Below the pieces are notes generated by a model. It saw only the letters and a program-made list of their open reading frames with translations. It searched no databases and was not told the origin of the DNA. From the IMG/VR virus record IMGVR_UViG_2529293039_000013: DNA of 50,040 nucleotides; one strand, 5' to 3'. This DNA is from a virus (lineage: Duplodnaviria; Heunggongvirae; Uroviricota; Caudoviricetes). Made by a program: the position numbers and the translations under genes. Below are positions 8,222 to 21,472 of the stretch, one piece after another (within the stretch, counting starts at the first letter, position 1; the number at the start of each line of letters is the position of its first letter).

Positions 8222-9378
8222 ACAGTTTAACGGCAAATAACCGTTTGTCGCAACAGCTGGTGGTCAGCGTCGCTGAACACCTGTTGTTACGGCATGAATG
8301 CAGATTACCAAATCACCTGGCTGTAAGTAACCACAGAGAACTTTACCTGACTGTGGGGGGCGAGTTGTGCAGGAACTTAACCGCTGGTTTCGTGACGGAA
8401 GAGGGCTTTATGTCCATGTTATTCGTTGGGAGCCAGAAACACAGCGCGTTATCTATCTTCGCAAAGACTACCCGCATGAGTGCTTTAGTCCTTTGTGGAA
8501 ATTCAGGCGTGATTTTGTTGAGTGTGAAGGACCACCAGCATATTGATTCTGCAATTCCGGGACGTTACACTGCTCAGGCACCTTATAAAGCGGGTGCCGG
8601 GATTGGCGTCCTGAAATTGTCAACGGCGATGTATGACGCGCCAGCGTCTTTTTTATCGTCCGCATTTGCTCACATCCAGATTATGGTGGGCTGGGCGGGG
8701 GCACCGAAAGGTGCGCCGGTCTCCGTTGACGCCGGTTACGCCAACCCCGTCCAGTTCACCACCAGTGAAATTGGCGTTTCCGGTGGTGGAAGTTTTTCAC
8801 TGTCAACGGAGGCTGCCATCATGGCTACGATCCCAGCCCTCACTCAACCTGAAATCACCATTGACAACGGCCAGGCCGTTACCACTTCTTTGGCTGTTGC
8901 CAACTTCTTCTCCAAGCGTCACGACGATGTGCTGAAAAAGATCCGCACTCTGGATTGTTCCCCAGAGTTTTGTGCCCGCAATTTTGCGGAGACATCGATT
9001 TCGGTAAATCAACCGAACGGTGGTACACGCAAGCTCCCTTGCTATCAAATCACACGAGACGGTTTTGCGTTTCTTGCTATGGGTTTCACGGGTAAACGTG
9101 CTGCCCGGTTCAAAGAGGCATACATAAATGCCTTTAACCAGATGGAGAAACAGCTTTCAAAGCCCGCTGTACCGAGCGACGTTGCACATAACGCCAGCGT
9201 TCTCTGTTCCTACATTTCATCAATTCATCAGGTCTGGCTGCAGCAGCTTTATCCTATGTTGGCAAAAGCCGAATCTCCGCTGGCTGTTAGCTTATATGAC
9301 TATATTAATGATGCTTCGGCGCTGGCCAGTCTCATAAATTTGTCGCTGAACCCTTCAGAGGTAAGGGGGCGCAAATGA
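8218..9378 (+). CDS. Rha-family phage regulatory protein with about 200-aa N-terminal extension
   Basis: Rha-like motif (TTSLAVANFFSKRHDDVLKKIR) in C-terminal half; internal ATG at 8821 has strong GGAGG RBS. Confidence 0.55.
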   Translation: MNSLTANNRLSQQLVVSVAEHLLLRHECRLPNHLAVSNHRELYLTVGGELCRNLTAGFVTEEGFMSMLFVGSQKHSALSIFAKTTRMSALVLCGNSGVILLSVKDHQHIDSAIPGRYTAQAPYKAGAGIGVLKLSTAMYDAPASFLSSAFAHIQIMVGWAGAPKGAPVSVDAGYANPVQFTTSEIGVSGGGSFSLSTEAAIMATIPALTQPEITIDNGQAVTTSLAVANFFSKRHDDVLKKIRTLDCSPEFCARNFAETSISVNQPNGGTRKLPCYQITRDGFAFLAMGFTGKRAARFKEAYINAFNQMEKQLSKPAVPSDVAHNASVLCSYISSIHQVWLQQLYPMLAKAESPLAVSLYDYINDASALASLINLSLNPSEVRGRK

Positions 9379-17364: not shown

Positions 17365-19218
17365 ATGTCGATTAAACATTATGATGTTGTCAGGGCGGCG
17401 TCGCCGTCAGACCTTGCGGAAAAGCTGACACACAAACTGAAAGAGGGCTGGCAGCCGTTTGGTAGTCCGGTGGCCATAACCCCTTATACCCTGATGCAGG
17501 CGATTACAGCAGAAGGTGATGTGGTGGTCAGTGGTGCAACTGAGCCGGATTGGTACTACGTCATCGTACTGGCCGGGCAGTCCAATGCCATGGCTTACGG
17601 TGAAGGGCTTCCGCTGCCGGATTCATACGATGCTCCGGATCCGCGCATTAAACAGCTGGCGCGCCGCAGTACAGTTACGCCGGGTGGGGCTGCATGCAGA
17701 TATAACGATATTATTCCGGCCGACCACTGCCTGCATGATGTGCAGGATATGAGTACGCTGAATCATCCGAAGGCAGACCTGAGCAAAGGGCAGTACGGCT
17801 GTGTCGGCCAGGGCTTACATATTGCCAAAAAACTGCTCCCGTATATCCCGAATAACGCGGGGATCCTGCTGGTACCATGCTGTCGTGGTGGTTCGGCATT
17901 CACCCAGGGCGCGGAGGGGACATTCAGTGCGGACACGGGGGCCAGCCAGGATTCGGCACGCTGGGGTGTGGGTAAACCGTTATATCAGGACCTGATTGCG
18001 CGCACTAAAGCTGCATTACAGAAGAACCCGAAAAATGTGTTGCTGGCGGTGTGCTGGATGCAGGGAGAGTTTGACATGAGCGCCGCCACCCACGCACAGC
18101 AACCTGCGCTGTTTACAGCCATGCTGACACAGTTTCGTGCTGACCTCTCCGTGTTTAACGCGCAGTGCCATGGTGGCAGTGCTGCAGATGTGCCGTGGAT
18201 TTGTGGTGACACGACGTATTACTGGAAAAATACATACGCTACCCAGTACGACACCGTGTACGGCGGGTATAAAAACAGGGAGAGTGAGGGCGTTTATTTT
18301 GTGCCCTTCATGACAGACGGTAACGGCGTCAATACCGCCACTAACGCACCGGCAGAAGATCCGGATATTCCGGCATCAGGATATTACGGTGCGGCATCGA
18401 GAACGAATGGAAACCAGGTATCATCAAACCGCCCGACACATTTCAGTTCATGGGCGCGCAGGAGCATTATTCCGGATCGTATGGCAACCGCTATTCTGAA
18501 CGCAGCCGGGCGCACCTCAGCTTTCATCAGTGGTAAGGCACCGGAAATCAAACCCTCGCCCGGCGGCAACACGCCATCGGGGCCGTCTGAAGATGCATCC
18601 GTACGCACAATCTCCCTGTTGCCGACAGCCGGAGAGGCTGCTGCGCAGGGCTGGACCATTAAGGACGGCGGAATTCAGTTGTCGGGTGGTGTATTTAAGA
18701 TCGCCAAGCAGAGCAATAAAACCTGGTCCCTGATGCATCCGGTGGATGACGCAGTCTCCCTGCTGACACGGGGTGGCAGACTGAGCTGTAAGTTTCGACT
18801 GTCAGGCGCACTGACCAACAACCAGTTCGGCCTGGGAATTTATCTGTATACCGATGTAGCGTTACCTGACGTCGTGGCGATGACCGGGACTGGTAACCCG
18901 TTCCTGATGTCGTTCTTCACCCAGACCACAGACGGCAAACTGAATCTGATGCATCACAAGAAAGCAGGAAACACAAAGTTGGGCGAGTTCGGGAATTACA
19001 GTAATGACTGGCAGACGCTGGAACTGGTGTTCACCGCCGGCAGTGCCACGGTTACTCCGAAACTGAATGGAGTGGCTGGCCCGGCATTCCAGGTCATAAA
19101 AGACAGTCTGACACTGGGGCTGAATGCGCTGACGCTGACGGATATTACCAAAAATGCAGCGTATGGCGTTGAGATAGAAAGTCTGGTGCTGGAGATAAAT
19201 GCACCGGCATCATCATAA
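17365..19218 (+). CDS. prophage sialate O-acetylesterase (NanS-p-like; DUF1737 N-terminus plus SASA domain)
   Basis: GQSN esterase motif (VLAGQSNAMAYGEG); 617 aa; position between Q/tRNAs and lysis genes. Confidence 0.8.
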   Translation: MSIKHYDVVRAASPSDLAEKLTHKLKEGWQPFGSPVAITPYTLMQAITAEGDVVVSGATEPDWYYVIVLAGQSNAMAYGEGLPLPDSYDAPDPRIKQLARRSTVTPGGAACRYNDIIPADHCLHDVQDMSTLNHPKADLSKGQYGCVGQGLHIAKKLLPYIPNNAGILLVPCCRGGSAFTQGAEGTFSADTGASQDSARWGVGKPLYQDLIARTKAALQKNPKNVLLAVCWMQGEFDMSAATHAQQPALFTAMLTQFRADLSVFNAQCHGGSAADVPWICGDTTYYWKNTYATQYDTVYGGYKNRESEGVYFVPFMTDGNGVNTATNAPAEDPDIPASGYYGAASRTNGNQVSSNRPTHFSSWARRSIIPDRMATAILNAAGRTSAFISGKAPEIKPSPGGNTPSGPSEDASVRTISLLPTAGEAAAQGWTIKDGGIQLSGGVFKIAKQSNKTWSLMHPVDDAVSLLTRGGRLSCKFRLSGALTNNQFGLGIYLYTDVALPDVVAMTGTGNPFLMSFFTQTTDGKLNLMHHKKAGNTKLGEFGNYSNDWQTLELVFTAGSATVTPKLNGVAGPAFQVIKDSLTLGLNALTLTDITKNAAYGVEIESLVLEINAPASS

Positions 19219-19368
19219 AAAGTGAGCCAGCCAAATGGAAGGTATCGTTAAACTCACCGGTAGTGTCAGTGGGTCGTCTGAGATGCCTGCATGAGTTATC
19301 AGAGCCATCAGTACTTAACTGGTGGCTTTTTTTATTGCTGTCAGCTTCCGGATAACGGGAGACGGGGT

Positions 19369-19584
19369 ATGTACCAGATGGAAAAAATCACAACAGGTGT
19401 GTCATACACCACGTCAGCGGTGGGAACGGGCTACTGGTTCCTGCAGTTGCTGGACAGGGTTTCCCCGTCTCAGTGGGCGGCAATAGGCGTGCTGGGGAGT
19501 CTGCTGTTTGGGCTGCTGACATATCTGACTAACCTGTATTTCAAAATCAGAGAGGACCGTCGTAAGGCGGCGCGGGGGGAGTAA
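19369..19584 (+). CDS. class II pinholin (S21-like) with dual-start motif
   Basis: 71 aa [15 protein letters not shown]...[13 protein letters not shown] matching phage 21 S from memory; Met1 and Met4 starts. Confidence 0.8.
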
Positions 19585-19588
19585 AGCG

Positions 19589-19933
19589 ATGAAGAAAAAA
19601 TACGAACTGGGTGTTAAAGGGATAAATAATTACCCGGATAAGATTACTGTTACTGTGGCACTGGAAATTGGTGGGTATCCGTCACTGTTGTTGCCAGATG
19701 TGGCGATTAGTCTTGACCGTACTGAAGGTGCCACGCTGGAGTTTTACGAAGCTGAGGCGAAAAAGCAGGCGAAGCAGTTTTTCATGGATGTTGCTGCCGG
19801 GTTATGTGAAGGGGATGGTCCGTTGCCGGAAAAGCGGCCCATCATTTTAGAGGCGCAGGATGTGTTGATAACCTACAGAGGAAAACTACCGGGAATAATT
19901 ACTGGTTCTCTGAAGACTCCACCGCTGGCCTGA
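19589..19933 (+). CDS. hypothetical protein inserted between holin and endolysin
   Basis: strong GGGGGGAG RBS; 114 aa; no family recognised. Confidence 0.5.
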   Translation: MKKKYELGVKGINNYPDKITVTVALEIGGYPSLLLPDVAISLDRTEGATLEFYEAEAKKQAKQFFMDVAAGLCEGDGPLPEKRPIILEAQDVLITYRGKLPGIITGSLKTPPLA

Positions 19934-19983
19934 AGACTTAATATATCCAGGGATTTGAAATCGATAAACCCTGATAAATATCC

Positions 19984-20517: not shown

Positions 20518-20611
20518 GCAGAATATTTTGCTGAAAAATAAGGCATGGCCACGCGGGCGGATAACACGAAATCCTGCGAACTGGCGAAACGTAAGTGAAT
20601 AAAAGTAAAAA

Positions 20612-20642
20612 CCCCGTTTGTTGGCACCAAGCGGGGTTTTGT
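20612..20642 (+). terminator. hairpin with T-run immediately downstream of endolysin
   Basis: imperfect hairpin ccccg...cgggg followed by T-rich tract. Confidence 0.45.
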
Positions 20643-20673
20643 GTTTCTGACCTTGAGTAAGGCAAGGGAGAAC

Positions 20674-20856
20674 ATGGCGAAGTATAAACGAATTCTGTTG
20701 AGGTTGACTATGAAAAATGGCCTTGAACTGAAAGCGCCTGTAACTGATGACATCAGCAGAGCACTGGCTTTTGCCATTAAGTGGGTGGCGGTCGGTGTTG
20801 CTGTGTCCCCGATGCTGTATGGGCTGGCAAAACTGGTCATTGCGTTGAAATCGTGA
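20674..20856 (+). CDS. hypothetical protein (60 aa) between endolysin and Rz
   Basis: GGGAGA RBS; hydrophobic C-terminal half. Confidence 0.3.
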
Positions 20857-20870
20857 AGGGAGGATTAAGC

Positions 20871-21002
20871 ATGTCAGACAAACTCATAACGCTGGCGAAG
20901 ATCCTCTGTGTAATTGTCGGCATTTCATTTTCACTAATGCTGGTTGCTCTTTTTCTTTCCATGGCCTGGATGATGTTGTCTTCGTCGGGGTTGCTGGGGT
21001 GA
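20871..21002 (+). CDS. small membrane peptide (43 aa) translationally coupled to Rz
   Basis: GGGAGG RBS; single hydrophobic helix; stop overlaps Rz GTG start. Confidence 0.35.
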
Positions 21003-21472
21003 ACATAAACCGAATGCTTTCCGCGTTTATCGTTATTCTGCTGGTGGCCTGTGGTGCGCTGTGGATGGCAACAGACCATTACCGTGATAACGCGATTACC
21101 TACAAAGCGCAGCGCGATAACAAAGCCAGTGAACTGAAGCTGGCGAACGCAACCATTACTGATATGCAGGTGCGCCAGCGCGATGTTGCTGCGCTCGATG
21201 CAAAATACTCGAGGGAATTATCCGATGCGAGAGCTGAAAATGAAACTCTGCGCGCTGATGTTGCCGCTGGTCGTAAGCGCCTGCGGATCAACGCCACCTG
21301 TCCAGGCTCCGTGCGTGAAGCCCCCACCACCTCCGGCGTGGATAATGCAACCGGCCCCCAACTGGCAGACACCGTTACACGGGATTATTTCACCCTCAGA
21401 GAGCGGCTGATGACGATGCACAAGCAACTGGAAGGGGCACAGGACTATATCCGCACTCAGTGCCTGAAATAA
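20999..21472 (+). CDS. inner-membrane spanin Rz
   Basis: strong similarity to lambda Rz from memory ([15 protein letters not shown]...[10 protein letters not shown]). Confidence 0.85.
21225..21410 (+). CDS. outer-membrane lipoprotein spanin Rz1, embedded in +1 frame of Rz
   Basis: lipobox LPLVVSAC; proline-rich [14 protein letters not shown] as in lambda Rz1. Confidence 0.75.

Follow-up and report, generated by a model that had tools for sequence, protein, structure and literature searches.

The window analysed here is the whole 50,040-nucleotide (nt) stretch of a virus of the Caudoviricetes (IMG/VR record IMGVR_UViG_2529293039_000013). Its lysis cassette holds an open reading frame (ORF) of 114 codons at 19589-19933 on the plus strand, between a P21-type holin gene (S) and a gene for a lysozyme (R) of the signal-anchor-release (SAR) type. 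We found that this ORF belongs to the named YdfR (DUF1327) family, which has the same position in E. coli K-12, and that its novelty at the level of the gene is nil. The reading that we favour, with a probability of about 45%, is that the YdfR of the window is an optional, moron-like accessory gene at the holin-lysozyme junction of Escherichia lambdoid prophages, whose conserved core binds RNase E and/or RNA.

An optional YdfR-family gene in the lysis cassette

Profile, homology and location all place the ORF in this family: the protein matches PF07041 (DUF1327) across residues 1-112 with 151.2 bits (gathering score 25; E 9.3e-45), it is homologous to K-12 YdfR, and it lies between holin and lysozyme genes. 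It also matches phrog_406 (E 1e-63), and the DNA is 100% identical to that for WP_000731190.1, a "YdfR family protein" of E. coli CFSAN004176. In RefSeq the three neighbouring products bear the names "class II holin family protein", "YdfR family protein" and "lysozyme". The first-pass annotation of the window had presented the ORF as an extra gene, and the novelty that this implied did not survive: the same family sits at the same site in the K-12 prophage Qin and in phages H-19B and BP-4795, and thousands of genomes contain DNA that resembles ydfR. That annotation had also allowed that the ORF might prove to be a known component of lysis cassettes; it is a conserved and named occupant of the site, but one for which no lysis role is known. 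NCBIfam and PDB sequence searches with the protein gave no match. A known lysis function was ruled out: the Pfam and PHROG families matched are all of unknown function, NCBIfam gave nothing, and the protein has no membrane segment.

In pairwise Nei-Gojobori comparison with alleles of several phages and of E. ruysiae, E. coli and E. albertii, the ratio of nonsynonymous to synonymous substitution (dN/dS) lies at 0.19-0.40 in codons 1-73, where synonymous divergence ranges from 0.2 to saturation, and at 0.45-0.71 in codons 74-114. This pattern indicates that the ydfR ORF is a genuine coding gene under selection, and the values in the core exclude the lack of a coding signature that had earlier been considered.

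Comparison of junctions further indicates that ydfR is optional, and that cassettes with the same holin exist without it. The adjacency of S and R on which the first-pass annotation had relied was confirmed in phage 21, where the two genes overlap by 1 nt, and in 933W, where a holin 99% identical to the S of the window is followed after 4 nt by R; neither phage has ydfR. Phage vB_EcoS-689R5, whose holin is 100% identical to S21, does encode a YdfR of 116 amino acids (aa) in the S-R interval. A tblastn search found the P21-type holin in 436 phage records versus 101 for YdfR, and co-occurrence with holin and endolysin is not obligate. Where ydfR is present, its spacing is nearly invariant: counts of junctions and lengths were made on the best 80 IMG/VR loci, of which 79 extend upstream of ydfR, and in 78 of these the S stop lies exactly 4 nt before ydfR (3 nt in the remaining one). 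The window conforms, the ATG being the fifth base past the S stop (TAA, 19582-19584), as had been noted before; the end of ydfR is separated from the R start by 50 nt.

The composition of ydfR is also distinct from that of its flanks. Its GC content is 47.5% (45% in the core) versus 54.6% for S and 54.5% for R, and within loci the core is 45-56% identical versus 75-100% for S and 89-92% for R; at an E. albertii locus these values are 56%, 100% and 92%, respectively. Lambdoid morons, for example bor and lom of lambda and the morons of HK97 and HK022, are additional genes lodged among the conserved genes of the late region. Like them, ydfR is present or absent between homologous flanks, has an atypical GC content and has relatives at different sites of late operons. 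Unlike them, it has no detectable promoter or terminator of its own and is apparently translated within the late polycistron; this negative result comes from a consensus scan only and is not conclusive. In that scan, nothing between S, ydfR and R rose above chance: promoter-like sites were at chance level, and only weak hairpins of 5-6 bp were seen, inside the ydfR ORF. Since no such signal separates the three genes, their co-transcription from the Q-dependent late promoter is expected, in agreement with the co-expression with lysis genes that had been proposed from position. No Rfam family of non-coding RNA matched 19589-19983.

The very strong ribosome-binding site attributed to the ORF by the first-pass annotation was borne out. 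The duplex that its leader forms with the 3' end of 16S rRNA (-9.4 kcal/mol) is the strongest among six starts tested, the others being S71 and nanS-p (both -7.4 kcal/mol), S68 (-6.4), Rz (-5.7) and R, which shows no anti-Shine-Dalgarno pairing (+0.6). Alignment of the junctions placed ydfR where R of 933W begins, on the same Shine-Dalgarno sequence embedded in S and at the same 4-nt distance, but in 933W it is R that uses this S-linked ribosome-binding site. Relative to the 933W-type junction, the R start of the window has moved 395 nt downstream. The last 22 nt of the R leader (CGATAAA[C/T]CCTGATAAATATCC) are identical in all 75 related IMG/VR loci compared and are partly kept in K-12. At the level of the sequence, the resulting effect in cis is real: the insertion always takes over the S-coupled ribosome-binding site, of which R is thereby deprived.

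Among the closest known counterparts is the Qin prophage of E. coli K-12 (essQ-ydfR-rrrQ-rzpQ; YdfR is b1555, P76160), in which the DUF1327 gene likewise begins 4 nt past a P21-type holin gene and directly precedes an rrrQ-type lysozyme gene, whose product is 90% identical to R of the window. The two differ at the next junction: the ydfR stop of K-12 overlaps the R start (ATGA), which would permit translational coupling, whereas the window has its 50-nt spacer. Much closer proteins (95-99% identical) are found in the same cassette layout in H-19B, BP-4795, YYZ-2008, Stx2-phage 86 and phages converting to Shiga toxin (Stx) types Stx1a and Stx2c. The H-19B copy is unannotated, and the others are unannotated or listed as a hypothetical ORF. 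These Stx phages carry stx upstream, whereas the window has a TerB-family ORF at that position. The earlier description of the cassette as phage-21-type stood in part. The holin is of the phage 21 family (79% identical to S21), but the lysozyme is of the 933W/Qin rrrQ type (94% identical to 933W R and 89-98% to this type overall), and R21 is a different SAR lysozyme (31%).

The locations of distant relatives indicate that the YdfR family is not tied to lysis, since core-only homologues of 72-99 aa (P0229, P0206 and P0177) lie at varied positions among tail-tip genes of Yersinia-type prophages. Their neighbours are homologues of lambda M, L, K, I and J, and each is followed by a small gene on the opposite strand. 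In the E. coli phage Evi (L019 2501-3040) the order is S, a 72-aa core-only YdfR, an opposite-strand gene of 98 aa, and R. The opposite-strand neighbour of a tail-cluster DUF1327 copy in a Y. enterocolitica prophage (L004 3001-3548) shares 61% identity with this gene, which indicates that a two-gene unit moved between lysis cassette and tail operon. The ~98-aa gene has no Pfam or PADLOC match, and Pfam scans of the opposite-strand partners in general were empty.

Other DUF1327 copies (L007, L008 and L021) precede unrelated opposite-strand genes. One of these is in phiSTEC1575-Stx2k (L021 2281-4299), whose lysis region is composite and includes three holin-like genes: S and ydfR are kept, two small opposite-strand genes follow ydfR, and in place of R there are a further pair of holin-family genes and a gene for an M15 metallopeptidase.

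Conserved core and modular tail

The YdfR of the window is a mildly acidic protein of 12.4 kDa (isoelectric point 5.5) that is predicted to be soluble. We found no membrane segment or signal peptide (maximum 19-residue hydropathy 1.18; grand average of hydropathy -0.06) and no lipobox, and DUF1327 is the sole Pfam domain, so that a muralytic domain is absent as well. A protein with none of these canonical features of lysis proteins probably stands outside the holin-endolysin-spanin machinery.

The family as a whole has in common only its first ~72 residues, and this core is the sole part that the window protein, K-12 YdfR and the Yersinia homologues share. The window and K-12 cores are 46% identical over 72 residues and have in common Y5, L7, V9-K10-G11, R44, E46-G47 and L50-A55 (LEFYEA). 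An AlphaFold2 model of residues 1-76, based on an alignment of 21 sequences that includes the Yersinia members, is confident, with a predicted local distance difference test (pLDDT) score of 89.3 and a predicted template modelling score of 0.78. It shows three strands (residues 5-14, 18-27 and 37-43) and one helix (50-71). When the whole protein was modelled, pLDDT fell below 50 for residues 73-114. Fold searches gave weak, generic matches only, and nothing significant in BFVD; a resemblance of the core to a dsRNA-binding domain or an RNase H-like fold is tentative.

Behind the core, the tails differ. K-12 YdfR ends in 31 residues (KLSEKVESYLQHQ...) that are unrelated to the 41-residue tail of the window protein (GLCEGD...PEKRPIILEAQDVLITYRGKLPGIITGSLKTPP). 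The latter tail is 74-100% identical among loci that have it and recurs attached to divergent cores. It is also modular: in isoforms of 176, 183, 211, 268 and 329 aa it leads on to a coiled coil and a domain of ~130 residues, for which a Pfam scan gave no match. In the isoforms of 268-329 aa (L042 1161-2150, L090 2001-2807 and P0126) this C-terminal domain reads EWECNRPSFVV...GLTYLKGRI, and one further protein (P0040) has a YdfR core fused to an ANT-like (PF03374) fragment. The gene of the window is collinear with the 329-aa form for 335 nt, after which ~650 nt are missing, and it rejoins that form 22 nt before R; this arrangement indicates that the 114-aa YdfR is a truncated derivative of the isoforms of 176-329 aa. 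Lengths of 89, 110, 148, 176, 211, 221, 268 and 329 aa were also seen, and 114 aa is the most frequent length in close relatives (60 of the 80 loci).

Function of YdfR and competing explanations

Host RNase E is a known target of phage proteins, among them T4 Srd, which is directed at the N-terminal half of the enzyme, and T7 gp0.7. The Dip protein of phiKZ targets it too (PMC4980113). For DUF1327, ydfR and b1555, our literature search found functional data for K-12 YdfR only. It has been reported that a two-hybrid screen for partners of RNase G yielded a fragment comprising residues 1-72 of this protein and that this fragment prefers the N-terminal half of RNase E (residues 1-597) in the same type of assay (PMC13232886, RNA Biol 2026). 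In that study, Strep-tagged K-12 YdfR co-purified RNase E 1-598, and the eluate held abundant DNase-resistant nucleic acid, consistent with co-purification with RNA. Overproduction was non-toxic and barely altered the transcriptome, and ydfR had nearly no reads in standard growth (PMC13232886). The catalytic half bound by the K-12 core (PMC13232886) is the same region as that reported for T4 Srd.

Residues 1-73 of the window protein correspond to the RNase E-binding fragment of K-12 YdfR, and by this homology the core most likely contacts RNase E and/or RNA. According to the reading that we favour, the core would bind RNA and/or host RNase E, the latter at its catalytic N-terminal half, and would adjust RNA decay late in the lytic cycle. 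As a side effect in cis, the insertion would part R from the strong S-coupled ribosome-binding site and leave it on a conserved leader that has no Shine-Dalgarno sequence, so that synthesis of the endolysin may be lower or delayed. Two points weigh against this view: the window and K-12 cores are just 46% identical, and the K-12 data come from one study and include no clear phenotype (PMC13232886). The first-pass annotation had left open whether the gene modulates lysis timing or is an unrelated moron. The latter fits better, given that ydfR is optional beside an identical S21, is low in GC and has homologues in tail clusters, and that K-12 YdfR binds RNase E without being toxic (PMC13232886).

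Modulation of lysis timing is nonetheless the main rival reading. YdfR would act in trans on the pinholin/antiholin or the SAR endolysin and advance or delay lysis, possibly by binding the basic cytoplasmic C-terminal tail of S or by holding back SAR release. We regard this as unlikely, although several observations speak for it. All Escherichia copies examined follow a P21-type holin, at exactly 4 nt in 78 of 79 loci, and the S-ydfR pair is kept in phiSTEC1575-Stx2k despite replacement of the lysozyme; but phage 21 and 933W dispense with ydfR, which elsewhere accompanies an identical S21, and the distant homologues in tail clusters have no holin nearby. The gene has the strongest ribosome-binding site of the cassette, and an acidic YdfR could meet a basic S tail, but YdfR has neither membrane segment nor signal peptide, overexpression of K-12 ydfR caused no growth defect (PMC13232886), and the core (45-56% identity) is far more diverged than the S (75-100%) and R (89-92%) that it would have to match. 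A report on phage Mu (PMC9239132) indicates that additional regulators of SAR endolysins exist. More doubtful is a role as a host-benefit or conflict gene, in lysogenic conversion, superinfection exclusion or anti-defence, with low expression in the prophage or early after induction and with alleles shaped by an arms race. A core that is hypervariable between conserved flanks, as at the E. albertii locus, would suit such a role, but gene-level dN/dS gave no sign of positive selection. The gene behaves like a moron, with its lower GC and up to 8 matching places per genome, and diverse small opposite-strand genes accompany it in other phages; it has, however, no predicted promoter of its own, and in K-12 it is nearly devoid of reads in standard growth (PMC13232886). 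A multicopy screen connected ydfR with a 3-fold increase in the minimum inhibitory concentration of streptomycin (PMC12924614), and a screen cited in PMC13232886 links it to envelope integrity. PADLOC, on the other hand, matched none of its defence models at E <= 0.1 with the window protein, K-12 YdfR, a 176-aa isoform or a Yersinia homologue, and assignment to an anti-phage defence system was dropped on this result.

We consider it still less probable that the insertion is a spacer acting in cis, or a decaying remnant, and that the protein, a 114-aa relic of a 329-aa one, has little or no function; the insertion would then persist by uncoupling R from the S-linked ribosome-binding site and lowering the R:S ratio. 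The loss of ~650 nt relative to the long isoform and the many lengths from 89 to 329 aa are what one would expect of a relic, but the 114-aa form is the commonest in close relatives, and the ORF is intact across alleles that are 45-99% identical. Likewise, the tail is predicted to be disordered and is weakly constrained (dN/dS 0.45-0.71), but the core is under clear purifying selection (0.19-0.40) even where synonymous divergence is saturated, and a stand-alone core protein of 72-76 aa is kept in other genera. The lack of a Shine-Dalgarno sequence at R and the leader conserved in 75 of 75 loci also speak for this reading.

In its most far-reaching form, the RNase E-binding reading would make YdfR a late regulator directed at RNase E or RNA and long tied to pinholin cassettes, which tunes the decay of late or host transcripts while its insertion rewires translation of R, the two together setting lysis timing and burst size. 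We hold this extension to be improbable. If it were true, this would apply to more than half of E. coli strains, Stx phages among them, and the divergence of core alleles within conserved surroundings would be a mark of co-evolution with a target in the host. Lysis controls toxin release in Stx phages, and ydfR is present in Stx1 and Stx2c phages. Should Stx phages that have ydfR and those that lack it differ in lysis timing and toxin release, either RNase E binding or the loss of the R Shine-Dalgarno sequence could account for this. Apart from this, interest remains in the presence of a very common gene without established function within a classic, well-studied lysis cassette.

Distribution and other features of the window

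YdfR-like DNA was found in 3159 of 5426 complete E. coli genomes (58%), at up to 8 places per genome, and the whole block from S through the ORF to R was covered to at least 80% in 2600 genomes. Among 1.84 billion representative proteins, a profile search matched 91 (representatives at 50% identity). Among GTDB species representatives, only Escherichia and Shigella and two contigs of metagenome-assembled genomes (MAGs) were matched, and every more distant member that bears a name comes from Yersinia. A wide taxonomic spread was thus rejected, and the family is tiny: there are 91 representatives, and the named matches are all Escherichia/Shigella or Yersinia. Contigs of a Veillonella parvula MAG (L015) and a Bacillota MAG (L017) carry a Qin-type ydfR whose product is 46-47% identical to the window protein; this is the level seen for the Qin-type loci of E. 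coli and Shigella, and the contigs are most likely mis-binned Escherichia DNA.

Table 1. Coordinates of ydfR, the lysis cassette and other features of the window
Feature	Position	Strand	Evidence or remark
isrK	8578-8654		Rfam, 62 bits
C4 antisense RNA	8679-8766		Rfam, 81 bits
Q	14142-14936		
tRNA-Met/Arg/Arg	15439-15688		
TerB-family ORF	16383-16886		at the place of stxAB
STnc100 small RNA	17058-17227		Rfam, 102 bits
nanS-p-type SASA esterase	17365-19218		
S, phage-21-type class II holin/antiholin, 71 codons	19369-19584	+	Pfam PF04971 "Bacteriophage P21 holin S", E 7.8e-33; PHROG holin
Shine-Dalgarno GGGGGGAG of ydfR	19574-19581	+	within the last S codons, 7 nt before the ATG
ydfR-family gene, 114 aa, DUF1327	19589-19933	+	PF07041; phrog_406; dN/dS below 1
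ydfR conserved core, aa 1-73	19589-19807	+	three beta strands and one long helix (AlphaFold2 model)
ydfR C-terminal tail, aa 74-114	19808-19930	+	predicted to lack stable structure; linker module of longer isoforms
AT-rich spacer (32% GC), Shine-Dalgarno-less leader of R	19934-19983	+	
R, lysozyme, 177 aa, rrrQ/933W type, N-terminal SAR-like segment	19984-20517	+	PF00959 Phage_lysozyme, E 3.3e-24
Rz, i-spanin	20999-21472	+	PF03245, E 7e-47
Rz1, o-spanin, embedded in Rz	about 21240-21410	+	lipobox LVVSAC; within the embedded +1 ORF 21183-21410

The genes that surround ydfR are listed in Table 1. S has a dual start (Met1 at 19369, Met4 at 19378), and the N-terminus of R is rich in Gly and Ala, as is typical of SAR endolysins. 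A terminator-like hairpin (19301-19329; 12 pairs and a T-run) lies in the interval between nanS-p and S, just 5' of the S start, and Q-modified polymerase would need to read through it. The cassette contains a second insertion, in the R-Rz interval (20518-20998), where 933W has "ant"; its GC content of 47% is the same as that of ydfR. It holds a 13-bp hairpin (20608-20640), a 71-codon ORF (20641-20856) that matches phrog_1115, a family of unknown function, and has no Pfam match, and an overlapping ORF (20781-21002) whose C-terminal 43 residues resemble a single membrane helix.

Upstream of the cassette, the region 15439-17227 has the layout of a Stx phage without the toxin genes. A related prophage has been reported to carry a tellurite-resistance gene in place of stx2d (PMC9413875). 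Further upstream, isrK and C4 form an immunity RNA pair of the P1/P7 type, known in the early region of some lambdoid prophages.
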